Made by a program: the position numbers and the translations under genes. A stretch of 20,000 nt of DNA, from the IMG/VR virus record IMGVR_UViG_3300020123_000428; one strand, 5' to 3'. Shown piece after piece: positions 1 to 10,545 of the stretch (its first letter is position 1; the number at the start of each line of letters is the position of its first letter). Source of the stretch: an uncultured virus (IMG/VR IMGVR_UViG_3300020123_000428). Taxonomy: Duplodnaviria; Heunggongvirae; Uroviricota; Caudoviricetes. The notes under the pieces were generated by a model, which worked only from the letters and a program-made list of their open reading frames with translations, searched no databases and had not been told where the DNA came from.

Positions 1-435
1 CTCCATCAGGTCCCGCGCGTCCTCGGGGAGTTCGCTCATGCCGCCGACGCGCTCGGCCGAGTCTCGCCACAGCAGGTACACGCGCCGGTTGTCGTGAAAC
101 TCGCCAGTGTCCTTGACCACGTGGTAGTGGACGCAGATCGGCGCCACGAGCTGGTTGGCCAGAGTGGCCGCGAACTCGGCCTCGGTGTGGTCGGTGGTGA
201 TCTTCAGGACCACCGCCGGATCCAGCGTGGGGATCACGCAGCCGTACGCGCCGCAGCCGTACTCCTTGACCGCGGCGACCACGCGACTCCCGCGGGCGAC
301 CGGGCGGACGTCCATGAGCCGCGGCAGCCATCGCGACGGCATCGAGTCCTCGAGATCCTCGTAGACCCGGCCGATGATCTCCGCCACCCAGGGCGGGTTC
401 TGGACGAAGGCGTCGGGTGACGGGCGCGCGCGCAT
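1..435 (-). CDS. Protein kinase-like protein, N-terminal part (3' end runs off the window)
   Basis: Manual translation from ATG at 435 is open to position 1 (145 codons): MRARPSPDAF...KEYGCGAYGCVIPTLDPAVVLKITTDHTEAEF...RRVYLLWRDS. It shows a GxGxxGxV Gly-rich loop, the VxxK lysine and a helix-C-like Glu. Catalytic loop/DFG not visible in the window. Confidence 0.75.
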   Translation of the reverse strand, partial: MRARPSPDAFVQNPPWVAEIIGRVYEDLEDSMPSRWLPRLMDVRPVARGSRVVAAVKEYGCGAYGCVIPTLDPAVVLKITTDHTEAEFAATLANQLVAPICVHYHVVKDTGEFHDNRRVYLLWRDSAERVGGMSELPEDARDLME

Positions 436-457
436 GGTGGTATCTTACGAGGGATTC
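436..457. promoter_or_regulatory. Putative bidirectional promoter with overlapping -10 elements
   Basis: Plus strand TG-G-TATCTT (-10 at 441-446) and minus strand TAAGAT (447-442); predicted starts ~453 and 435, the latter being the A of the kinase ATG (leaderless). Confidence 0.5.
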
Positions 458-1321
458 ATGGAGATCTCCGAGAAGAACCTGTCGGGGTTCCGCGACTGGC
501 TCCGGGGGCGCGGGCGGACCGAGGGGACGGCCGAGACCTACTGCATGAACCTCCGCACCTGTGGCGCCGACCCCAAGGGGCTGACCCACCGCCTGATCGC
601 CGGCGACCTCGCCCCGACCACGCTGCGCTGTAACCTCGCGTCCCTCCGAGCCTGGGCGCTGTACGCCAAGGACGGCACCCTGTCCCAGACCCTGGCCGAC
701 CTGCGCCTCCCGCCGCCGCGCCGCATGAAGTCCCGTGATCCGCTGGATCGCGAGGACTGGAAGCGGATAGTGCGCCACCTCCAGACCTGCGACATGACCA
801 ACGAGGCCATGCGTCAGATCCTGCTCATCATGGCGCTCCGGGGCCTCAGGTCCGGCGACGTTCTGCGGCTCCGCCGCGCCGAGGTCGTCCGCGCCGTTGC
901 CAGCGGCAAGCTCTCCTACGAGGGCAAAGGCAGGAAGCGCATCGAGCTCTCGGCGGCGCCGATCCGGGGGCCGCTCGAGGCGCTCGCGCAGATGCGCGGC
1001 TGGGACCGCGTGCGTGACCTCCTCGGAACCGCTCGCTCCGGCGAGACGCTTGCATCGTCGGCGCTGCGCAAGAAGGTGTGGCGTGCCGCGATCCGCACCG
1101 GCGCCGCGGCCGGCATCGACGAGATGAACCCGCACCGCTACCGGCACACGTTCGCGACGCAGTACCTGGCCCAGCTCGCTGGCGACCCCAATAGCATCGT
1201 GAAGCTGCAGCGGTACATGCACTGGGAGTCGATGGGGACCGCGGCGCGGTACGTCGACCACGTGTCCCGCGAGCAACTCGATAAGGTGGGCGACGACATG
1301 GTGTCCGACCTCCTGACCTGA
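458..1321 (+). CDS. Tyrosine recombinase (XerC/Cre-like, ~287 aa)
   Basis: Catalytic motifs GLRSGD (R), GKGRKR (K), PHRYRH (HxxR), YMHWESMGTAARY (W/Y). ATG 458 is preferred because upstream starts would overlap the divergent kinase gene. Confidence 0.93.
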   Translation: MEISEKNLSGFRDWLRGRGRTEGTAETYCMNLRTCGADPKGLTHRLIAGDLAPTTLRCNLASLRAWALYAKDGTLSQTLADLRLPPPRRMKSRDPLDREDWKRIVRHLQTCDMTNEAMRQILLIMALRGLRSGDVLRLRRAEVVRAVASGKLSYEGKGRKRIELSAAPIRGPLEALAQMRGWDRVRDLLGTARSGETLASSALRKKVWRAAIRTGAAAGIDEMNPHRYRHTFATQYLAQLAGDPNSIVKLQRYMHWESMGTAARYVDHVSREQLDKVGDDMVSDLLT

Positions 1322-1383
1322 CCCCGGCCATTGCAGGGGGCTATCCACGGGCGCGCGGTCGCTGATAGCATCAGCGCCAGCCC

Positions 1384-3147
1384 ATGCCAGACAAACTCTA
1401 CGCCATCCTCGAGTTCACCGGAATTCCCGTCGATGGCACGCAGACGCTGCCCCACGGCCTGACGATCAACGGCCAAGTGCTGGTGCCGGACTTTGTGTCC
1501 CCGCAGTACCCGGGGACGTTCGAGGTGACCAGCACGACGACCTCGGGCATCACGCTCCACAACGTCTCGAGCGCCAGTGGCAACTGCTTGGTCTGGTGCT
1601 ACGCGATCCACCCGGTGGCCCGATCGTTCGGGGCACCGCCCGACGATGGGAACATCCACCAGCATCTGACGCCCCAGCCGTTCGTGCTGGGGTCGCCGAA
1701 TGTCCCGGCGGGATCCTTTGATCAGTTCAACGTGAAGAACTTCGGCGCCATCGGCGACGGGGTGCACGACGACACCGGAGCCATCAACCGCGCGATGGCG
1801 GCGGCGGCGCTCGTCCAGCTCAGCGGGGCGTTCGGGGCCATGGTGTTCTTCCCGAAGGGGGTCTACAGCGTGAGCGCGCCGGTGCAGGTACCAGACGGCG
1901 TGGGGTTACAGGGCGTGGGGACGCCGGGCTCGGTCATCCGCGCGTCGGCGACGTTCAATGGGACGGCGCTGGTCCAGAACCTCCATCAGGACGGCACGCA
2001 GGAGTTCATGTTCGTCGAGGGGCTCACGCTCGACGGCAACCATGCGGCGGGGGCGGTGTGCAGCACCGCGGTGCTGGACATCGTGTCGATCTTCGTGAAC
2101 TCGTTCGTCCGCGACGTCGAGATCCTGAACGGCAGCAGCGTCGGCTTGCACGTGGGCGCTCTCCGCGCGATGGGGCCGATCCTGTTCGACAACATCTGGG
2201 TGGCGAACAACCTGGGCGACGGCATCTGGTGCCAGGAGATGCCCGGGAACGTCGGCGCCTGCGACGGGCTGCTGTTTCTCCACACCGCGAGCGAGCACCA
2301 GGGGTCCAACCACGTGGCGCTGCGTCTCACGGGGCTGGGGAGCGCATCGGGCTGGTCCTTCATCAACCTCCACATCGAGCAGGGCCAGATCGGGGCCACG
2401 TCGCAGACGTGCATCGTGCTGGATGGTGTGCCGGACGTGTTCTTCGACAACGTGCAGCTGCTGACCGGCAACGCGCCGCAGACGACGGGAATCGTGATCA
2501 CGAACGCGGTCCAGAACGTCCGGTACCAGTTCCGTGGGATCGAGAATGCGAACCTCATCAACCCGGTGATCAGCGATCTGAAGAACAGCGTCACGTGGGG
2601 CGCGATCGGCGCGATTCCGTGGTACGTGGCCCCGGACGTGGTCATGCGCGGTGGCCTACGGTTTCTGCCGGCCGCCACATCTGGATCCAAGAGTGTCGCG
2701 TTTCAGAATGCCGGAGGGACCGACGCCGCGTGGTTCGATGATCAGGGCATGCTGATCGGCAACAGCCTCGATGGGGCGCTGGATGTCGCGGCGAACAGTG
2801 CCGACGGGGCGACGGGTCGGGTGATGACGTGGTTTAACCATGCGCAGAACCGCGGGTTTGGTTTTTACTTTCCCGACGGGAACTTCTTCACATTCAGGTA
2901 TGTCACCGGCGGAACCGATGTCTTCGACATCGACAACAGCGGGTTCATGCGTGTGTTGACGCTGCTGACGATCGTCGGGGCGCTGAAGGGGACCGCGACC
3001 CACACGGCGCCGCCCAGCACCGGTGCGCACGGGGTGGGCGAGATCGTCTTCAACGCCGATCCGATCGCGGGCGGTTTCATCGGATGGGTCTGCGTCACGG
3101 CAGGAACGCCAGGAACCTGGAAAACCTGGGGCGTCATCAGTCCGTAG
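1384..3147 (+). CDS. Spike / receptor-binding protein with pectate-lyase-like right-handed beta-helix (putative depolymerase)
   Basis: FNVKNFGAIGDGVHDDTGAINRA...VFFPKGVY beta-helix cap motif, Asn/Gly-rich beta repeats, and C-terminal GEIVFNADP..GWVCVTAGTPGTWKTWG typical of phage spikes. Confidence 0.85.
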   Translation: MPDKLYAILEFTGIPVDGTQTLPHGLTINGQVLVPDFVSPQYPGTFEVTSTTTSGITLHNVSSASGNCLVWCYAIHPVARSFGAPPDDGNIHQHLTPQPFVLGSPNVPAGSFDQFNVKNFGAIGDGVHDDTGAINRAMAAAALVQLSGAFGAMVFFPKGVYSVSAPVQVPDGVGLQGVGTPGSVIRASATFNGTALVQNLHQDGTQEFMFVEGLTLDGNHAAGAVCSTAVLDIVSIFVNSFVRDVEILNGSSVGLHVGALRAMGPILFDNIWVANNLGDGIWCQEMPGNVGACDGLLFLHTASEHQGSNHVALRLTGLGSASGWSFINLHIEQGQIGATSQTCIVLDGVPDVFFDNVQLLTGNAPQTTGIVITNAVQNVRYQFRGIENANLINPVISDLKNSVTWGAIGAIPWYVAPDVVMRGGLRFLPAATSGSKSVAFQNAGGTDAAWFDDQGMLIGNSLDGALDVAANSADGATGRVMTWFNHAQNRGFGFYFPDGNFFTFRYVTGGTDVFDIDNSGFMRVLTLLTIVGALKGTATHTAPPSTGAHGVGEIVFNADPIAGGFIGWVCVTAGTPGTWKTWGVISP

Positions 3148-3158
3148 CGTCCGAACGC

Positions 3159-3262
3159 GTCTCCGACGCCAAGCTGGGTAACCTCAAACAGGCGACGTCT
3201 CGGTTTTCACCGAGCCCAAACCAACTAACCACTGTCGGCACGACGTCTCGGCACGGCCGAGC
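3159..3262 (+). repeat. Hairpin cluster A (GT-CTCGG-loop-CCGAG-C)
   Basis: GTCTCGG-TTTTCA-CCGAGC (3197-3215), GTCTCGG-CACGG-CCGAGC (3245-3262), half-site GTCTCC at 3159. Confidence 0.8.
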
Positions 3263-3365
3263 ACTACCAGTAGCGTCATCCTACCGGGAGATCCCACACA
3301 AGTGGTGGATCATCGGATGTGGATTGCGTACGCTGTGTGGGATGGCACCCACAAGATCCGTGATC

Positions 3366-3695
3366 ATGAACGACGATGCGCCGCCGGCGATGGCGCCGGG
3401 CTCCCAGGCGGGGTACGTGGACATCGACCGGCTGGCGAACTCGGACCGCATCGTGGCGGTGTTCAGCCAGCGGCGGTGGGACGGAGAGATCACCTTCGCG
3501 ATCTTCCGCGAGTTCGACAAGTTCGAGCGCGGACAGGTCGTGGTGAGCCGTACGGGGTTCATCCCGGCGTCGCTGTCCGAGTCGTACCAGTCCCATGTGC
3601 AGCTCGCGATCGCTCACATCGGGACGCTGGCGCAACGTCGGCGCGAGCGGAAACTGCCCTTCCCCGAGGGCGGTGAGCAGCGAGGGCGGCGGTGA
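3366..3695 (+). CDS. Hypothetical protein (~109 aa; beta-sheet plus C-terminal helix)
   Basis: 3' part of ORF 3084..3695, protein-like composition, stop overlaps the endolysin start (GTGA). Start could be 3342 or 3366. Confidence 0.65.
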   Translation: MNDDAPPAMAPGSQAGYVDIDRLANSDRIVAVFSQRRWDGEITFAIFREFDKFERGQVVVSRTGFIPASLSESYQSHVQLAIAHIGTLAQRRRERKLPFPEGGEQRGRR

Positions 3696-4564
3696 TCGTC
3701 GGGGTGGACTACGCGTCGGTCGATGGCAACGCGCCGCCGGACTGGGACGTGTTCCAGGCGGCGTGCTCGAGCAGCGGATCGTCGGCCGGCATCGCGATCT
3801 TCCGCGGCGCATACGGCGCGAGCCCGGACGCTACGGTGCTCCGTGACTGGAGGCGCGCGCAGGCGGCGGGCCTCGTCACCGGCGCCTACCTGTTCCTGCG
3901 CAGTTCGCAGCCGGTGGTCGATCAGGTGCACGCGTTCGCCGACAACGTCGGCGTGCTGACCGCCCGGGATCTGGTGCCCATCCTGGATGTCGAGGACCAG
4001 TGGCCCGGTGGCCCCGAGGCCGAGCTCGAGGCAGTGCACGAGGCGTGGACGGCCATGAAGGGCATCTACGGCGCGCCGCCGATGATCTACGACTCCGGCC
4101 GGGTCTGGCTCGAGGATCTCCACAGCCTCCCCGCCGGCGAGATGCTGGACTCGGCGCAATGGGTCGCCAAGCCGTGGCCGTGGGCGGTCCACAAGCCCGC
4201 GATGCTGTCGCCGGGGCCGTTCCAGGGGACGACCTATGATCCGGTCGTGCCGGCGCCGTGGGGGCCCGGCAACTGGTGGCTGCACCAGTACCAGGGCGAC
4301 GCGCACCCGGTGCCAGGGTTCACCAACACGGTGGACCTGTCGCGGTTCCACCTGATGCAGTACGGCGAGACCGGCGCGCGCGTGCGGTGGGTGCAGACCC
4401 GCCTGGGCATGCCGGTCACCGGCATCTTCGACAGCGCGATGGGGACCCGCGTACGCGCGTTCCAGACCGCGCACGGCCTGGTCGCGGACGCCGTAATCGG
4501 CCCCCGGACGTTCGTGCTGATCGCGTGGGCCACGCCCATCACGAGCTCGCCCCGCGCGGCATGA
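3692..4564 (+). CDS. Endolysin: GH25 muramidase plus C-terminal peptidoglycan-binding domain
   Basis: GVDYAS N-terminal Asp, GAYLF, ILDVE (DxE), WLHQY, VDLS; PG-binding pattern G..VRWVQTRLG..TGIFD....VRAFQTAHGLVADAVIGPRT. Confidence 0.9.
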   Translation: MIVGVDYASVDGNAPPDWDVFQAACSSSGSSAGIAIFRGAYGASPDATVLRDWRRAQAAGLVTGAYLFLRSSQPVVDQVHAFADNVGVLTARDLVPILDVEDQWPGGPEAELEAVHEAWTAMKGIYGAPPMIYDSGRVWLEDLHSLPAGEMLDSAQWVAKPWPWAVHKPAMLSPGPFQGTTYDPVVPAPWGPGNWWLHQYQGDAHPVPGFTNTVDLSRFHLMQYGETGARVRWVQTRLGMPVTGIFDSAMGTRVRAFQTAHGLVADAVIGPRTFVLIAWATPITSSPRAA

Positions 4565-5163
4565 CCTGCATCGCCCCGCGGGCACCCGGCGATCGCGCGC
4601 GCTGCGGTCAGCCCCGTGAGCCCGGGAGCCTGTTCTGCCGCGGCCACGAGCGGGCGCCGGCCGCGCAGCGGGGCGGCTGGTTGTCCGCCGAGCGGCGCCG
4701 GCGCAAGATAGCCTCGGAGCAACCCATGGACGCCTCGAACGTGGCCACACGGCTCTGGATCGGCGCCCGCCCGCCGGCCGACGTCGATCTACCCGATATC
4801 GACGTGCTGGTCTTGTGCGCGGAGGAGATCCAGCCCGAGCGCATGGCGTTCCACGGGCGGATCATCCGCTGCCCGCTGCCGGACGCCGCCCTGAACACGC
4901 CGCAGGCCGCGCGCGCGGTCCTGGCCGGTCAGGCGGTCGCCGAGGCACTGGCGACCGGCCAGCGCGTGCTGGTGACCTGCGCGATGGGGATCAACCGATC
5001 CTCGCTGGTCGCTGGCCTGGCGCTGGCGCGCGTCACCCGGATGGGCTGGTCGGAGATCGTCTCCCTGATCCGCGCCCACCGCCACCCGCTGGCGCTGAGC
5101 AACCCGCACTTCCTGCACCTCTTGCGGCAGGTCGCGCGGGACGGTCGCGCGCCGATCCGCTGA
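4561..5163 (+). CDS. Dual-specificity / tyrosine protein phosphatase with N-terminal CCCH finger
   Basis: VLVTCAMGINRS (CX5R P-loop), LWIG, PLPD acid loop, SNPHF; ATG 4561 overlaps the endolysin stop (ATGA). Confidence 0.88.
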   Translation: MTCIAPRAPGDRARCGQPREPGSLFCRGHERAPAAQRGGWLSAERRRRKIASEQPMDASNVATRLWIGARPPADVDLPDIDVLVLCAEEIQPERMAFHGRIIRCPLPDAALNTPQAARAVLAGQAVAEALATGQRVLVTCAMGINRSSLVAGLALARVTRMGWSEIVSLIRAHRHPLALSNPHFLHLLRQVARDGRAPIR

Positions 5164-5221
5164 TGTCATCTCCAGTCTGTGGAGACCGCCACAGCGCGTC
5201 TGGGTGATCCATGCACCTCAA

Positions 5222-5377
5222 GTCTCGGGGACGATCCCAGTTCCCGTCTCGGCACCCCGAGCAGTGTCTCATCGGTGTCGTGTCACGTCCCGGTCGTCGG
5301 GCTCGTCTAGAACAGATTCGCAGGCGTCTCGGTCATGGTCTCGGTTCGCACGATTCTTACGTCTCGGTAGACCGAGC
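5222..5377 (+). repeat. Hairpin cluster B (in the convergent intergenic region)
   Basis: GTCTCGG-CACC-CCGAGC (5246-5262), GTCCCGG-TCG-TCGGGC (5287-5302), GTCTCGG-TAGA-CCGAGC (5361-5377); further GTCTC at 5222, 5266, 5326, 5338. Confidence 0.8.
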
Positions 5378-5426
5378 AACTCTCACGTTCCATGTAGCTG
5401 ATGTCTACCAGCGCGGGTAGCCGGCC

Positions 5427-5780
5427 TCAGAAGCCGATGATGGTGTTGTAGCTCGCCAGGAGCGTCAGCGCCTGGGTGTTCGAGATGGCGCCGGTGCCCT
5501 GGAGAAAACTCGCCATCCAGCACAGCCGGTACACCGCCTCCGCGGCGTCCGTGAGCTGGGTGATCGGTGGCACCCCGGTGGGCATCACCTGACCCAGCGC
5601 CGCGATGATCACCAGCCAGTTGCTCACCGGGTGGCTCGCCTGGATCTGCTGCGGGAACAGATCCAGGTTGGCGGACCAGAAGTTGATGAGGGTGTTCTTG
5701 AGCTGGCTCGACAGCCAGCGGACCTGCAGGTTGTCGAACGCCTGGCCGGCGGCTTGCGCCAGTGATGTCGCGGTCGCCAT
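5427..5780 (-). CDS. Hypothetical protein (117 aa), putative virion/membrane-associated
   Basis: Clean ORF at the end of the minus-strand operon, hydrophobic helical stretches. Confidence 0.75.
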   Translation of the reverse strand: MATATSLAQAAGQAFDNLQVRWLSSQLKNTLINFWSANLDLFPQQIQASHPVSNWLVIIAALGQVMPTGVPPITQLTDAAEAVYRLCWMASFLQGTGAISNTQALTLLASYNTIIGF

Positions 5781-5784
5781 CGGT

Positions 5785-6567
5785 TCACCCCTGATCCTGA
5801 TCGGACATCACGATCCGGAGCGGCGCCGGACCGGCGTTGGTCACGCTGAAGATCAGCGCGTCGAACGTGCCCTGGTTCTTTGCCGTGATGATCTGCGTGA
5901 CCGAGTTCCCCGAGGTCACCGTGGCCGCCGCGTGGATCACCGTCTCCTGGTGGTACGGGTTCGGGGAGCCATCCTGGGTGATGGCGTAGTTGACCGCCGA
6001 GATCCCGTAGGTGGTCGGGTCGGTCGCGTTGCGGTTGGTGAACTGGGTGAAGCAATACTTCCGGCCGTAGTACGGCACGACGATGTACAGCGTCCCGGTG
6101 ATCACCGAGTAGTCCTGGAACACGAACGACTTGTCCTGGCGCGCCGGGCCCAGCGACGGCGGCGAGATGAAATACTCGAGCACGTCCAGGCGCGGCGCCA
6201 CGAACTCGATCTTGTCGCCGCTCACGAACGCGCGCGGGCGGAAGTTCGGGTCGTAGATGTCGTCCGACCAGAACAGGATCTTGCCGGGCCGACCGGCGGG
6301 CGCGTAGCTCGCCTCGTTGCGCGCGTCCAGGCGCCCGACCAGCGCGCGGTTCGGCGAGATCACCGCGAACTGCATGAACGTGTCCACCTGGTCATCGAAG
6401 TAGGCGACGTTGACGTTGGCGATGTCGGAGTCCGGGCCGACCGCGAACCCCAGGCCCGACTGCGACGACTCGTAGATGTCGCCGGGCGAGGACAGGAGCG
6501 TGTTCAGCCGGAAGAACTGGTATCCGCCGGTCGCGTACTTGTCGGCATCGGGCTGTGGGTACGACAT
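5785..6567 (-). CDS. Putative virion structural protein (260 aa, beta-rich)
   Basis: Strong GC3 bias, alternating hydrophobic beta-strand patterns, purine-rich RBS (AAAGAGG). Confidence 0.75.
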   Translation of the reverse strand: MSYPQPDADKYATGGYQFFRLNTLLSSPGDIYESSQSGLGFAVGPDSDIANVNVAYFDDQVDTFMQFAVISPNRALVGRLDARNEASYAPAGRPGKILFWSDDIYDPNFRPRAFVSGDKIEFVAPRLDVLEYFISPPSLGPARQDKSFVFQDYSVITGTLYIVVPYYGRKYCFTQFTNRNATDPTTYGISAVNYAITQDGSPNPYHQETVIHAAATVTSGNSVTQIITAKNQGTFDALIFSVTNAGPAPLRIVMSDQDQG

Positions 6568-6600
6568 GTGCCTCTTTCGTCGCGTCTTGCGGGTGGCAAG

Positions 6601-7083
6601 CTACCGCTTGGTGAGCGCCGACACCACGGCCGGCGCGCCGCGCACGGCGGCCATGAACGAGGTGAACAGGCCCGTGATGGTCTCGAGCCACGGGTAGGGC
6701 TCGACCACGACGCTGATCCGGTTTGCGCCGGTCGCGGCGACGTAGAGCTTGTTGCCCTTGGCGATGTTGAACACGGTGGGCACGCCGGTCTGGAGAAGTT
6801 GGCCCTTGCCCGAGAGCACCGGAGTGAGCTGGCTCGACTCGCCGACCGCCACAGGTCCGGCGGTCTCGAGCGTGAGCGTGACCTTCGCCCACTGGCGATC
6901 GCCGTTGTAGATGATCGGCGTCTCCGCGCCGACCACGGGAACATTGGTGAAGTAGGTCCGGACGTTGACCTTGATCTCCGCGTTGCCGGTCGTGTCGGCG
7001 GGGACCGGCGACTGGGCGACGTTGCGATTAAGCGAGACCGCATGGATCTTGCTGATCTTCCGGGGTGGCACGGGTGGGGTCAT
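6601..7083 (-). CDS. Putative virion protein (160 aa, small beta-sandwich plus amphipathic C-terminal helix)
   Basis: 3' part of ORF 6601..7749 starting MTPPVPP at ATG 7083, which overlaps the upstream stop (ATGA); beta-rich core. Confidence 0.75.
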   Translation of the reverse strand: MTPPVPPRKISKIHAVSLNRNVAQSPVPADTTGNAEIKVNVRTYFTNVPVVGAETPIIYNGDRQWAKVTLTLETAGPVAVGESSQLTPVLSGKGQLLQTGVPTVFNIAKGNKLYVAATGANRISVVVEPYPWLETITGLFTSFMAAVRGAPAVVSALTKR

Positions 7084-7871
7084 GGGCGTCTCGTGTAGAG
7101 GAGGTAGCCCAGAGCGAGACCACCCAGTACGAGCAGCATGGTACCCGAGATCGGCTCCACGAAGAAAGGAGCAACATCGGCCGGCAGGGTGTAGGGGCCG
7201 GCGGGGGGATCCGGGATGATCATGGGCGGTCCCGAGAGCCCGGCGGCGACGGCCTGGCCGATGGCCCACTGCCGATCGATATCGATCACGCGCTTGGCCA
7301 CGGTCGCCGCGCTCTGCGTGCCCAGCGGCGCGCCGCCGGTCTGGCTCACGTAGCGCACGATGTCGTGGTAGACGTCGCCGGTCGTGAGGCCGCCCAGCGC
7401 GGCGCGCGCGTTGGTGGCGAGCTGGTGAGAGCCGGCGCGGCCGACCGCGAACGCGAGGCGCGCGAGCTTCCACGAATCGGCGGTGCCCAGTTTGACCTCG
7501 GGGAAGGCCAGCGACCAGTACACCGCCTCCATCGCGTACTCCAGCGAGCCGATCGCGATGTTCGACTCCGGATCGGTGCGGGCGTCGGCGTCGTAGCCGA
7601 AGAGGGGTGGCACGTACGCGGCAATCTGGAGGTAGCCGACCTCGCCCAGCGATGGGTCCCCGGGCGCGTTGAAGTTGCCGCCGCTCTCGTGGGCGATCGC
7701 GGCCGCGAGGAAGCCGGCCGGCATGCCGCCGTGGTACATGTCGATCCACGGGCCGAGTTGGTCGTAGACGGCCTGAGCGACCGCGACATCGGCGTCGAAG
7801 GTTGGGTCAGTCGCCACCCGGTGTAGTGTATCACCGCCGCCCGCGATAGGCGGCGCCTCGTCTAGGCCCAT
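7080..7871 (-). CDS. Lytic transglycosylase (SLT-like) with C-terminal transmembrane anchor
   Basis: AIAHESGGN (catalytic ES), GYLQI, DPESNIAIG..Y, LAFAVG in place of AYNAG; C-terminal MLLVLGGLALGYLLYTRRP. Confidence 0.8.
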   Translation of the reverse strand: MGLDEAPPIAGGGDTLHRVATDPTFDADVAVAQAVYDQLGPWIDMYHGGMPAGFLAAAIAHESGGNFNAPGDPSLGEVGYLQIAAYVPPLFGYDADARTDPESNIAIGSLEYAMEAVYWSLAFPEVKLGTADSWKLARLAFAVGRAGSHQLATNARAALGGLTTGDVYHDIVRYVSQTGGAPLGTQSAATVAKRVIDIDRQWAIGQAVAAGLSGPPMIIPDPPAGPYTLPADVAPFFVEPISGTMLLVLGGLALGYLLYTRRP

Positions 7872-7897
7872 CGCCTAGCTGCTCTCGGCCCGGCGGG

Positions 7898-8593
7898 TCA
7901 GTACACCATGCGACTCAGGAGGCCGGAGAGGTGGATCCACACCGCCGGCTCGTGAATGTGCGACAGCGACAGCATCATCTCGAGGAGGCGGGCGGTCGTT
8001 CGGGATTCCGGGACGACCTCGACGTAGAACATCTGACGGACACTGATTGGGACGGGGCGCGGCTGGGCGGCGACGAACTCCGCGACCGCGCACCAAGCCG
8101 ACACCTCATCGTGGCCAAGTTCGGCGAAGTCGCGCCGGCCATGCCGGCTGCTGGACATGTAGATCAAGTAGAGGCGCTGGGCGAGCGCGTGGGTCTCCGG
8201 GGAGACGTACGCCTCGTACCGCAGTCGCTTGGCGTCGTCGTCTTCTTCGACCGCGCCGCCGAACCCGCTCTCTCGCCTCGGCTGGACCAACTCCGCCAGC
8301 GGTCGCTCGCTCATGACCTTGAGGCCGACGACCAACCGGACGGTGACCGCGTTGGCCCACTCGGCGTAGGCTGGCAAGTCCTCCGGGAGGTTCGTGCGGG
8401 CATACCAGTTCGTGACGAGCGCGCTGGAATCGGAGGGAAGCACCCCTCCCGTCATCATGTTCGTCATGCGACCCACGCCGATGTTGCGGTTGCCGAACAA
8501 CCGGACGGGTCGTCCATCCAAGCAATCTCGTGGCGAGAACGCATCGTAGACGTTGAGGTTGACGCGATCGAGGTCGGAGTGAGGGAGGATCAT
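7898..8593 (-). CDS. Hypothetical protein (231 aa), possibly single jelly-roll capsid-like
   Basis: Clean ORF; N- and C-terminal beta-strand segments (VYD..RLFG..TNMMTGGVLP; PISVRQMFYVEV..VWIHLSG) flanking a helical insert. The fold call is inference. Confidence 0.6.
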   Translation of the reverse strand: MILPHSDLDRVNLNVYDAFSPRDCLDGRPVRLFGNRNIGVGRMTNMMTGGVLPSDSSALVTNWYARTNLPEDLPAYAEWANAVTVRLVVGLKVMSERPLAELVQPRRESGFGGAVEEDDDAKRLRYEAYVSPETHALAQRLYLIYMSSSRHGRRDFAELGHDEVSAWCAVAEFVAAQPRPVPISVRQMFYVEVVPESRTTARLLEMMLSLSHIHEPAVWIHLSGLLSRMVY

Positions 8594-8606
8594 CGTGCGT
8601 CCGATG

Positions 8607-9188
8607 TTACAACGCCGCCAGCAACACGTCGGCGGCGTCGTTGATGATCGCCACCCGCTCGGGCGATCCCCCCGTCCGGTCCGGGTGGTGCTTCTTGTTC
8701 AGCGCCCGCCGGCGGTCCTTGATCATCGCCTCGGTGAGCGGCTCGCTCTGGGCGAACCCCAGCACCTGGCGCGCGATCCGACGCTTCTCGATCTCCGGAT
8801 CGATCGGCGGCGGGGCCGGTGGGCGCTGTCCGCCCGCAGCTGCAGCGCCAGCGCCGGGCCACCACCGGGGGGTGCCGCTCTGCGCCCGCCGGTGGGCGCT
8901 CGCCTCCGACTCCCCGTCGAACACCTCGGGGCGGTACCCGCCGGCCATGCCGGTCCACTGCTCGGCCAAGTCCTGCACCGCGCCGATGGTCGCCTCGCGG
9001 TTGATGGCCTTGCCCTGGAGCAGATCGACCAGCGTGCTCGCCAGCACCTCGGAGGGTGGCCGGGGCCGCGCTGCGGTGGCGAGGGCGATGCGATGCGGTG
9101 AGCACAGCGCCGGCGACCCCTCGCCCGGGTATGGGCAGCGGCGTCCGCCCTCGGTGTAGGTGCAGCGCGGGTGCTTGATCTTGGGCAT
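8607..9188 (-). CDS. J-domain (DnaJ-type) protein with N-terminal CCCH finger
   Basis: C-terminal ARQVLG...IKDRRRALNKKHHPDRTGGS...INDAADVL with HPD. ATG 9188 is preceded by AGAAGG; the longer start runs through hairpin cluster C. Confidence 0.85.
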   Translation of the reverse strand: MPKIKHPRCTYTEGGRRCPYPGEGSPALCSPHRIALATAARPRPPSEVLASTLVDLLQGKAINREATIGAVQDLAEQWTGMAGGYRPEVFDGESEASAHRRAQSGTPRWWPGAGAAAAGGQRPPAPPPIDPEIEKRRIARQVLGFAQSEPLTEAMIKDRRRALNKKHHPDRTGGSPERVAIINDAADVLLAAL

Positions 9189-9196
9189 CCTTCTGC

Positions 9197-9434
9197 GTCT
9201 CAGCGTACCCTGAGCCGAACCGGAAGTCGCACGTCTCGGCGATTCGTCACGCACAGCAGTCTCGGGCTGTCTCGGATGCCGAGCCATTCCTAGCGGAGGC
9301 GATCCGATGGTCTCCCAGGGTACGGGGGAGCCGGTTCTAGCACGCGGACGTCTCGGAGCCGTTCAGGGTCTGGTCTCGGGCTTCCCCGAGCCGAGCCGTT
9401 CGACGCCGAGCACTGCGTCTCGGGAGTTCCGAGC
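9197..9434 (+). repeat. Hairpin cluster C
   Basis: GTCTCAG-CGTACC-CTGAGC (9197-9215), GTCTCGG-ATG-CCGAGC (9269-9284), GTCTCCC-N9-GGGAGC (9310-9331), GTCTCGGG-CTTC-CCCGAGC (9373-9391), GTCTCGG-GAGTT-CCGAGC (9417-9434); half-sites at 9233, 9259, 9350. Confidence 0.85.
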
Positions 9435-9437
9435 GCT

Positions 9438-9752
9438 TTACTTGCTGGGCGCGGCGGGCGCCGGCGGGAACTTCGTATCCGCTGCGGCGTCGATGGCGGC
9501 GTTGTTGGCCGCGAGCGCGGCCTTGAACGCGTCGAGCTGGCCCTGCATGGCGTCCGGGGTCAGGTCCCCGGTGACGCCCTTCTGGATCGTGTCGCCGACC
9601 GCGACGATCCCGTTCAGGAACGAGAGGATCGTGTCGGTCGTCGGGGTGCTGGCGAGCAGCCCCTTGGACGCGGTGACGATCGCATCGATCGCATGGAGCG
9701 CGGTCATCGCGCCGGTGAAGACGGACTGGGCCTTGTCGGTGGCGGCGGACAT
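9438..9752 (-). CDS. Hypothetical Ala-rich amphipathic helical protein (104 aa)
   Basis: 3' part of ORF 9438..10259 from MSAATDK; starts 2 nt after the upstream stop. Confidence 0.75.
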   Translation of the reverse strand: MSAATDKAQSVFTGAMTALHAIDAIVTASKGLLASTPTTDTILSFLNGIVAVGDTIQKGVTGDLTPDAMQGQLDAFKAALAANNAAIDAAADTKFPPAPAAPSK

Positions 9753-9754
9753 GG

Positions 9755-10159
9755 TCACTTGCTCCCGATCATCTGCTTGATGGTGGCGATCAGATCCTGG
9801 GACGCCGCGATCGCGGCGGTGAGGCTCGGATCGTCGGTCTGGGTGGCGGCGATCGCCAGGGTCTTGTAGGCCAGCGTGATGCCGGTGGCAATCTCCGCTT
9901 GCCTCGCGCGGTAGGCGGCGATGGCCTTGTCGTACTCCTCGCGCGTCGGGGCCGCATCGAGGATGGCCTGCTGGTGCTGCTTGTCCCACGGCAGGAATCC
10001 CTTCTCGGCGGCCTGCACCGCGAGCACGCTGGCATGGAGCGTGTCCTGCCGCTGGCTCTGGTTGCACGCCGACATGGTCGACGTGGTGAACAGCAGCATG
10101 CAGACGGTCGCGATGAAGTAGAGCGAGACGGCGGACGGGCGAACGCGGAGGATGGGCAC
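9755..10159 (-). CDS. Putative lipoprotein (134 aa, helical)
   Basis: GTG start with AAGGAG RBS; basic N-terminus, hydrophobic stretch, then MSA-C lipobox-like site. Confidence 0.7.
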   Translation of the reverse strand: MPILRVRPSAVSLYFIATVCMLLFTTSTMSACNQSQRQDTLHASVLAVQAAEKGFLPWDKQHQQAILDAAPTREEYDKAIAAYRARQAEIATGITLAYKTLAIAATQTDDPSLTAAIAASQDLIATIKQMIGSK

Positions 10160-10161
10160 GA

Positions 10162-10545
10162 TCAGGACTCCTTGACGGGGGTGGGCGGAGCGGAAGCGGT
10201 TGGGATGGGCGGCGGAGGCGGGGGCGCCTTGAAGACGGTGTGGTCCAGCGATGCGGCACCGCCGGTGGATACCGGGATCTGGACGATGTGAGGCGTGGCC
10301 GGCGGCGCCGGGGCCGGCAGCGTGACCGGCGCGGGCGTCGAGCTGGGGTCGCTGCTCTTGGACATGGTCTCCACCGAGCTCGTGACGGTCTTGGCCGCCG
10401 CGTAGGTGATGAAGATCCACTTCGTGTAGTCGAGCCACTGCGTTGGGGTGATGAACCCCATGCCGGTGAGCACGGTGACAGCGGCGATCAGCGCGATGGC
10501 AACGAGCCCGCGCTCGCTCTGCCAGAGATCCTTGAGTGCACCCAT
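10162..10545 (-). CDS. Holin-like membrane protein with Pro-rich tail (127 aa)
   Basis: MGALKDLWQSERGLVAIALIAAVTVLTGMGFITPTQWLDYTKWIFITYAAAKT: two short hydrophobic helices as in small phage holins. Confidence 0.6.
   Translation of the reverse strand: MGALKDLWQSERGLVAIALIAAVTVLTGMGFITPTQWLDYTKWIFITYAAAKTVTSSVETMSKSSDPSSTPAPVTLPAPAPPATPHIVQIPVSTGGAASLDHTVFKAPPPPPPIPTASAPPTPVKES

Follow-up and report, generated by a model that had tools for sequence, protein, structure and literature searches.

The window, ie the whole 20,000-nucleotide stretch of DNA analysed here, comes from an uncultured virus of the Caudoviricetes (IMG/VR record IMGVR_UViG_3300020123_000428) and contains ten short hairpins in three of its non-coding gaps. 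These hairpins are very probably mimics of the terminal helix in clustered regularly interspaced short palindromic repeat (CRISPR) RNA (crRNA) scaffolds of type V-M systems, whose effector is Cas12m. Read on the minus strand, the RNA of each hairpin has the form 5'-G[CUCNN-loop-N'N'GAG]AC-3'. In 10/10 hairpins a stem of 5-8 base pairs is preceded by G and followed by AC, as in the V-M helix, where the stem is closed by a G:A pair and then followed by C(-1). The initial annotation of this DNA did not recognise the motif, which corresponds to the helix at the end of type V-M CRISPR repeats. The asymmetry to which it drew attention, GT in the left arm and C in the right arm, is real (10/10 hairpins) and is the key feature of the motif. 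Its description as a G-C closing pair with a bulged T (A on the other strand) is better replaced by the G:A pair and subsequent C(-1) of the Cas12m crRNA scaffold, read on the opposite strand.

In the crRNA of TtCas12m2, G(-23) pairs non-canonically with A(-2), and the helix is formed by C(-22) to C(-17) with G(-8) to G(-3). His269 and Arg270 make base-specific contacts to C(-1) and to the G(-23):A(-2) pair, and the stem is held via its backbone (PMC10442227). This mode of recognition fits the fixed G..AC and the covarying inner pairs of the hairpins. The TtCas12m2 crRNA template (PMC10442227, Supplementary Table 1) parses exactly to the published numbering and contains the same G-stem-AC helix, one compensatory pair apart from the window consensus (CUUGGC/GCCAAG vs CUCGG/CCGAG); the lower stem, CU(C/U)GG, otherwise matches. 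The TtCas12m2 sequence was not found via the hairpin pattern and therefore provides an independent check.

Three phage contigs (G006, G007 and G008) contain CRISPR arrays of 36-nt repeats, with 26, 19 and about 5 to 9 repeats respectively and a period of ~72 bp in the first two. On the sense strand of the cas gene, GCUCGG-loop-CCGAGAC closes each repeat and is followed immediately by the spacer, which is the type V arrangement. The arrays adjoin Cas12m homologues. Two array-adjacent proteins, 530 and 488 aa long, share 41% identity, and the 488-aa protein matches the solved Cas12m structure 23vw_A (E = 3.8e-36). The hairpins share with V-M repeats a terminal helix of ~6 pairs, the G:A closure, C(-1) and the strand relative to cas12m. 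They differ from the ~36-nt repeats in size (16-22 nt per unit in the window, 16-25 nt overall), and there is no 5' segment and no long pseudoknot loop, loops in the window being 3-9 nt; no conserved sequence was found 5' of the helix in the hairpin copies. A bacterial V-M array (G030) follows the same G-stem-AC plan with another stem sequence.

The hairpins of the window

All ten hairpins listed in the initial annotation were found where it had placed them (10/10), with the loop lengths (3-9 nt) and compensatory stems (CTCAG/CTGAG, CTCCC/GGGAG and CCCG/CGGG) that it had described. Its extra GTCTC half-sites also exist in the gaps, but eight were counted rather than seven. A generalised scanner required two or more Watson-Crick pairs and a loop between GTCTC and GAGC. 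The features are as follows, the strand being that of the predicted transcript.

Gap 1, 3148-3365: between plus-strand genes.
3159: half-site, GTCTC.
3197-3215, no strand assigned: hairpin; GTCTC lies on the coding strand of both flanking genes, the same situation as at 3245-3262.
3245-3262: hairpin, antisense to the local mRNA; both flanking genes are encoded on its GTCTC strand.
Gap 2, 5164-5426: convergent junction.
5222-5228, minus strand: half-site, GTCTCGG.
5246-5262, minus strand: hairpin, found by coordinates, scanner and single folding.
5266, minus strand: bare GTCTC.
5287-5302, minus strand: variant hairpin GT-CCCG-loop-CGGG-C, without the CTC/GAG pairs and missed by the scanner; -7.0 kcal/mol.
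5326-5332 and 5338-5344, minus strand: half-sites.
5361-5377, minus strand: hairpin in the 3' untranslated region of a minus-strand operon, at least 49 nt past the stop codon of 5427-5780.
Gap 3, 9189-9437: between minus-strand genes.
9197-9215, minus strand: hairpin 5 of this gap, compensatory stem CTCAG/CTGAG; 8 nt separate its end from the start codon (ATG, 9188) of 8607-9188, the DnaJ-like gene.
9233-9239, minus strand: half-site, GTCTCGG without a matching right arm.
9259-9265 and 9350-9356, minus strand: half-sites.
9269-9284, minus strand: hairpin 4, 3-nt loop; the half-site at 9259 is able to pair with the same right arm instead.
9310-9331, minus strand: hairpin 3, stem CTCCC/GGGAG, 9-nt loop.
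9373-9391, minus strand: hairpin 2, 6-bp stem CTCGGG/CCCGAG, -14.5 kcal/mol; a second CCGAGC at 9391-9396.
9417-9434, minus strand: hairpin 1, minus-strand RNA G-CUCGG-loop-CCGAG-AC, 3 nt after the stop codon of the upstream minus-strand open reading frame (ORF); -11.4 kcal/mol.

The initial annotation had proposed comparison with shuffled sequence, and the motif was in clear excess: the scanner gave 12 matches in the window, against a mean of 0.4 and a maximum of 4 in 100 shuffles. Ten of the 12 are in the gaps, including one alternative pairing at 9259. The other two, at 1031 (minus strand) and 16626 (plus strand), are intragenic and look like chance matches. GTCTCGG occurs 16 times (15 on the plus strand, one on the minus), 13 of them inside the three gaps; shuffles contained 7.34 +/- 2.61 copies and only 1/200 reached 16. 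Where GTCTC and GAGC were paired loosely, the inner bases were complementary in 12/15 cases, compared to 0/6 in the mirrored sequence. Each of the ten hairpins, folded singly, gave the expected stem, with energies of -6.7 to -14.5 kcal/mol. Bare GTCTC is also skewed towards the plus strand (45 vs 14), much of this being due to GGAGAC ribosome-binding sites of minus-strand genes and not to the motif; GGAGAC stands directly upstream of the start codons of several of them, eg 10367, 12172 and 18260. A Markov model of over-represented 7-mers in the window was uninformative, and Rfam, suggested for consultation in the initial annotation, gave no matches at gathering score in the window or in loci L198 and L139.

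Related phages and their Cas12m

Syntenic phage contigs were reached via the 260-aa protein encoded at 5785-6567, and a complete relative, G001, was found by scanning IMG/VR for two adjacent hairpins. G001 is an 86,334-bp phage with direct terminal repeats, and its proteins are 27-72% identical to those of the window and encoded in the same order. It contains 38 strict hairpins (0 for a reversed-pattern control) and 66 by the generalised scanner (2.3 in shuffles), with up to 13 hairpins in 500 bp. Inner bases of loose GTCTC..GAGC pairs were complementary in 66/90 cases, compared to 2/33 in the mirror sequence. GTCTC and GAGC are fixed. The inner stem pairs are free: each of the two scored positions can be GC, CG, AT or TA, and the stems include GCC/GGC, GTG/CAC and TG/CA. 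Fixed arms, covarying inner pairs and variable loops uphold the proposal of the initial annotation that selection acts on a folded single strand and not on a duplex operator of fixed spacing.

In the 78 copies scored, compensatory changes leave the arms and G..AC flanks intact, and these are also retained between genomes of 40-70% protein identity. A further contig of 8.3 kb (L125) has five hairpins, including three at the position of gap 2; their relative strand is the same and their loops measure 8-14 nt. Two strains (L132 and L135) are ~99% identical to G001 in protein. In the cluster at 23.0-23.2 kb their flanks are identical to those of G001. The hairpins there show exchanged loops and a compensated change of stem (GTGG/CCAC to GGT/ACC), and one hairpin is deleted and one inserted, with the arms kept. 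Loops and inner pairs vary while arms remain constant in nearly identical strains, ie the arms are under selection. The motif is not general in the group. Two complete relatives of ~80 kb each (G002 and G003) gave 1 and 0 scanner matches, with none at the matching gaps, and a 20.8-kb locus (L123) gave 0.

G001 contains an intact gene for a Cas12m-family protein of 626 aa at 33,467-35,347 on the minus strand (L198:13467-15347). Its full-length match is to 23vw_A (E = 3.4e-46), and it also matches Cas12m2 (8hio/8hhl) with E = 2e-21. In the alignment to 8hio, His269, Arg270, Arg237, Arg241 and Arg245 of TtCas12m2 correspond to H, R, R, R and R. At the RuvC-I position TtCas12m2 has His and the G001 protein Asn; judged by that residue, the G001 protein should therefore bind rather than cut. 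No canonical CRISPR array was found in G001, nor cas1, cas2 or cas4. Seven hairpins lie directly upstream of cas12m, the last 30 nt before its ATG, and 49/66 copies fall within the 13.8 kb around the gene (23.0-36.8 kb). A protein-profile scan of IMG/VR for this clade of Cas12m returned 4 contigs, 4/4 of which are hairpin carriers. G002 and G003 have neither cas12m nor hairpins, so that presence and absence agree. A parallel to the leader hairpins of G001 is seen in the 135-kb phage G007, in which a three-repeat mini-array (L127:4940-5087) with spacers of 14-24 nt occupies the cas12m leader and may serve in autoregulation; 29 nt lie between its last repeat and the ATG.

The orientation of the hairpins follows the genes. 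In G001 26/26 copies between 3.5 and 27.2 kb are on one strand and 40/40 between 28.6 and 67.9 kb on the other, and the flip between 27.2 and 28.6 kb coincides with a flip in gene direction. All 66 copies are in sense with the adjacent or containing gene, such that the coding-strand RNA reads GCUC...GAGAC. One copy lies inside an integrase module of the opposite strand; 23 nt further on there is a start codon with a ribosome-binding site on the copy's own strand. Clusters often start 0-12 nt past a stop codon and end 8-35 nt ahead of a start codon. In the window the hairpins all have GTCTC on the plus strand because gaps 2 and 3 belong to predicted minus-strand transcripts; the two gap-1 copies are the exception.

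Such placement invites comparison with ordinary hairpins that stabilise or terminate transcripts without a dedicated protein, or with double-stranded operator sites, either of which is very unlikely to be the explanation. Several clusters are at operon 3' ends and convergent junctions, and one copy (9419-9433) scored as terminator-like. But the stems are not followed by a U-tract, only three terminator-like sites were found (1.9 in shuffles), 1/10 hairpins was flagged, and 13 hairpins in 500 bp would be excessive for termination. The fixed unpaired G..AC flanks and the fixed CUC/GAG lower stem argue for specific recognition, and the variable spacing of the arms, 3-16 nt, is incompatible with a dimeric duplex operator.

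Repetitive extragenic palindromic (REP) sequences and the bacterial interspersed mosaic elements (BIMEs) built from them are likewise intergenic hairpins that occur in clusters, vary in copy number and have a conserved foot. They have cognate REP-associated tyrosine transposases (RAYTs), and REPs with a CGTC tag exist. The hairpins could by analogy be selfish elements of the REP type, or resemble miniature inverted-repeat or palindrome-associated transposable elements (MITEs, PATEs), moved as single-stranded DNA by a Y1/HUH (RAYT, IS200-type) or Ssn-type enzyme, the strand bias then reflecting the direction of replication. An unpaired base is present, copy number varies between close relatives, G001 has a single switch of orientation (at 27.2-28.6 kb), and 6/9 window copies begin CGTCTC. 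Of all the readings considered this is nevertheless the one to which we give the least credence. PF01797 (Y1_Tnp) gave no match at E <= 1 in six frames of G001, whereas control genomes matched. No Y1/IS200-type transposase is thus present in this complete relative, which does not support the analogy to IS200/IS605 TnpA hairpins drawn in the initial annotation. There is no tetranucleotide tag, the base 5' of GTCTC being variable (G 24, C 23, T 19 and A 12 of 78 copies). The orientation flip is that of the genes, and the copy in the integrase module precedes, on its own strand, a start codon with a ribosome-binding site. In four bacterial genomes (3.7-8.3 Mb), all from one candidate family, there were 12-28 scattered matches (2-15 in controls), or 3-4 per Mb, compared to ~440 per Mb in G001. 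The link to Cas12m would not be explained by such mobility, and the strict sense orientation is a further difference from REPs.

The concentration of copies around cas12m could also be read as descent. The hairpins would then be functionless debris, ie decayed and reshuffled remnants of a former V-M array and of mini-arrays, spread by local duplication and recombination. The 49/66 copies within 13.8 kb, the partnerless half-sites and the tandem units with similar spacers (local duplication) are consistent with this, and the gap-1 copies look like passengers of module exchange. It is nonetheless distinctly improbable, given that arms and G..AC flanks are preserved by compensatory changes in the 78 scored copies and across genomes with 40-70% protein identity, and that near-identical strains change loops and inner pairs and not arms. 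The strict sense orientation (66/66 in G001) would also be unexpected. Debris, REP-like mobility and plain stabiliser hairpins remain improbable even when added together.

The hairpins do not form a true CRISPR array. Their spacing is irregular (6-73 nt, compared to the ~72-bp periods of V-M arrays), the units are 16-25 nt long, the periods detected by Tandem Repeats Finder (TRF) in G001 are only 24-34 nt, and the copies are dispersed over more than 60 kb of genome. The segments between hairpins and the putative guides adjacent to them gave no convincing targets in any of the genomes compared. The class of solitary repeat units was also rejected, as the copies occur in clusters and cover no more than about half of the repeat; SRUFinder requires at least 90% coverage of the repeat.

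Possible functions of the hairpins

The explanation that we prefer, tentatively and as a possibility rather than a probability when the whole statement is judged with scaffold identity included, is that the hairpins are cis-regulatory handles for the phage's own, array-less Cas12m. They would be transcribed as minimal copies of the crRNA scaffold helix and act by being bound by a Cas12m-family protein. The helix of 5-8 bp, closed by G:A and followed by C(-1), comprises the elements that Cas12m2 reads base-specifically. The likeliest binder would be an array-less Cas12m2-like protein of the phage with a non-canonical RuvC site, such as that in G001. Whether they lie at operon junctions, at 3' ends or in 5' leaders (8-35 nt ahead of the start codon), the hairpins would serve as handles in cis, at which Cas12m may mark, process or repress the phage's own messages with no guide being used. 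Binding near start codons could block access of ribosomes or direct processing. We are led to this preference by the intact gene with conserved scaffold-contact residues, the clustering of 49/66 copies, the leader copies and the positions before start codons.

A more far-reaching version is rather unlikely, though a real possibility: that a CRISPR effector without nuclease activity has become an RNA-operator regulator in this phage lineage, which would have lost the array and spread the ~18-nt helix to dozens of junctions and leaders, including that of cas12m itself, with guide-free control of the processing or translation of a genome-wide phage regulon.

Several observations weigh against handles for the phage's own protein. 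There is no cas12m in the window, so that the co-occurrence rests on one complete genome. The V-M arrays of the phage contigs were found by scanning for the motif itself, and the match is to that extent by construction. The hairpins are without the 5' half and the long pseudoknot-forming loop of real V-M repeats, so that binding by Cas12m is not assured. Folding of whole gaps was no better than that of shuffles (z = -1.25 and +0.49); as the single hairpins do fold, the signal lies in small units and not in a large structure. A promoter scan gave 0 sigma-70-like sites. The gap-1 copies (2/10 window hairpins) are antisense to the local genes. The tail-spike gene that precedes them has an N-terminus 60% identical to that of the G001 gene at 28752-29387, which is likewise followed by same-strand hairpins, and the gap-1 copies therefore probably arrived with the tail-spike module, as judged from this sequence likeness. 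Clustering near cas12m could represent descent from a decayed array. Finally, a phage with Cas12m and abundant handles could equally be titrating a foreign enzyme.

That last point leads to the other reading of substance, an RNA sponge or anti-CRISPR decoy, which is a considerable possibility though one that we rate below handles for the phage's own Cas12m. The mimics would here be aimed at a foreign Cas12m, encoded by competing phages, by the host or by plasmids of the host. Abundant phage transcripts with dozens of handles would load it with harmless pseudo-guides and relieve transcriptional silencing, a multi-copy and minimal form of the RNA anti-CRISPRs (Racrs). Phages are reported to carry solitary repeat units that bind Cas proteins and so serve as RNA anti-CRISPRs (PMC10651486). 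V-M systems are described as enriched on plasmids, as present in some prophages and as binding DNA without cutting it (PMC11656645, PMC11013384). There is no cas gene in the window, the segments between hairpins are often 6-16 nt, too short for guides, and have no match in the genomes compared, the clusters turn over rapidly between strains as in an arms race, and other phages of the same collection (G006, G007 and G008) carry full V-M arrays with this very helix. On the other hand, G001, the sole complete genome with hairpins, encodes an intact Cas12m of its own in which the scaffold-contact residues are conserved, and which a decoy would poison. None of 40 spacers from G006, G007 and G008 matched the window's phage group beyond 18 nt, and the V-M repeat stem differs in the one bacterial family examined. 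This is the family of a metagenome-assembled genome (MAG) labelled Bradyrhizobium; 3/301 of its genomes have a Cas12m-like gene, with an array at one of the three loci, and no Cas12m was found in the labelled MAG. Of the four roles suggested in the initial annotation the RNA sponge is the only survivor; nothing points to packaging, replication or partition. The partners that it proposed (ParB, the recombinase, the 3366 protein and capsid-like proteins) are conserved in relatives without hairpins.

Like Racrs (PMC10651486), the hairpins are mimics of CRISPR repeats in intergenic phage DNA, with a presumed action through binding of Cas proteins. Racrs are single and near-full-length; the present elements consist of the terminal helix only, occur in 10 to 66 copies, often in arrays, and in the complete relative G001 accompany an effector gene of the phage itself. 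SRUFinder discards clustered matches as well as those below 90% coverage, and would therefore leave dispersed mini-hairpins unreported. The crRNA-like regulatory mini-arrays (Shmakov et al. 2023, 10.1101/2023.03.03.530964) resemble the hairpins in having degenerate repeats and short spacers near cas genes, the three-repeat mini-array in the cas12m leader of G007 and the seven mini-hairpins at the same place in G001 being cases in point. In the known examples a guide acts on a promoter to which it is partly complementary; here the search for guide-target pairs was negative, and the hairpins spread far beyond the cas locus. A preprint of September 2026 describes the Cas12m of myxophage MV-1, which has a normal array, as the first in a phage (10.64898/2026.09.14.751636). 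It shares with the present system a compact Cas12m, a high-GC soil phage and the lack of cas1, cas2 and cas4, and differs in its array with eight spacers and its canonical RuvC residues; the word "hairpin" occurs 0 times in the preprint text.

Solitary repeat units or Racrs, regulatory mini-arrays and phage Cas12m with a normal array are known, and dispersed minimal V-M hairpins appear to be new. No description of them was found in a search of the literature that had the supplements of PMC11013384 and those of bioRxiv preprints outside its scope, and the motif letters gave primer noise only. CRISPR-repeat mimics in phages have so far been single and near-full-length; here there are tens of minimal Cas12m handles, of a kind that standard repeat searches would miss. 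If they are a sponge, it would be the most extreme RNA anti-CRISPR sponge yet, and directed against an effector that binds DNA without cutting. If they serve the phage's own Cas12m, a CRISPR effector would have been re-used by a virus to manage its own messages, and a regulatory role would amount to exapted, guide-independent post-transcriptional control by a CRISPR protein. The natural variation defines a minimal RNA determinant of predicted Cas12m binding, ie G:A, C(-1), a CUC/GAG lower stem and free loops, which may be useful for the compact Cas12m tools now being engineered.

Gene context and further observations

The window has a GC content of 67% and looks like part of a temperate phage. 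Plus-strand genes at 374-5163 encode an integrase, a tail spike resembling pectate lyase, the 109-aa product of the ORF at 3366, a lysozyme of family GH25 and a dual-specificity phosphatase. From 5427 onwards nearly all genes are on the minus strand, among them the DnaJ-like gene (8607-9188), a ParB helix-turn-helix protein and a DNA methyltransferase. Cas genes were absent from the 20 kb, cas12m included; the window is about a quarter of the expected genome. The operon with hairpins at its junctions and 3' end is laid out as follows.

5427-9188, minus strand: operon of ORFs 5427-5780, 5785-6567, 6601-7083, 7080-7871, 7898-8593 and 8607-9188.

Its minus-strand GC content at third codon positions is 0.86-0.95, and it is syntenic with the relatives. 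The tail-spike gene (1384-3147) and the lysozyme gene (3692-4564) are absent at the matching positions of two relatives (L121 and L122), and the N-terminus of the tail spike recurs twice in G001, at 24.3 and 28.8 kb, which points to module exchange.

Whole-window megablast against INPHARED phages and PLSDB plasmids gave no match, nor did an exact 43-mer of gap 3 in IMG/VR. Of the sequencing runs listed as containing positions 3000-9600 of the window, none was an RNA run; there were three soil DNA runs, with small shares. A single-hairpin pattern scan of IMG/VR returned, among the matches listed, only single, chance-like ones. A first protein-based scan of GTDB genomes was negative, and a second gave one 8.5-kb contig that has a partial homologue but is free of hairpins, in the MAG labelled Bradyrhizobium sp. 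In G001 a Pfam match (E <= 1e-4) was obtained for 7/85 of the ORFs searched (at least 80 aa and not crossing locus borders), and the window's phage group is largely uncharted. A block of 17 kb in G001 (38.6-56 kb) has no counterpart in G002 or G003, and the genome shows a recurring ribosome-binding context, AAGGAGATT.GAG-ATG. Hairpins of a related sequence also occur in a 103-kb phage of 36% GC (G009; L147/L162), whose composition is unrelated to that of the window's phage group: three tandem 21-nt GTCTCGG..CCGAGC hairpins lie inside each terminal repeat, at both contig ends.

The protein of 7080-7871 (minus strand) is the most conserved of the phage group, with 64-73% identity over six genomes and an HESGGNF motif. 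It had no Pfam or PHROG match; we take it to resemble a lytic transglycosylase. The 231-aa ORF at 7898-8593 (minus strand), for which no family match was found, belongs to a multi-copy family in the phage group, with paralogues in G001 (5143-5835 and 63636-64217) and G002. It seemed at one point limited to hairpin-bearing genomes and was considered as a hairpin partner, and was rejected on finding paralogues in G002 and G003. Between 9438 and 10500 the best minus-strand coding frame switches twice in about 1 kb (ORFs 9438.., 9755-10438 and 10162..), which could be due to short overlapping genes or to frameshifts.

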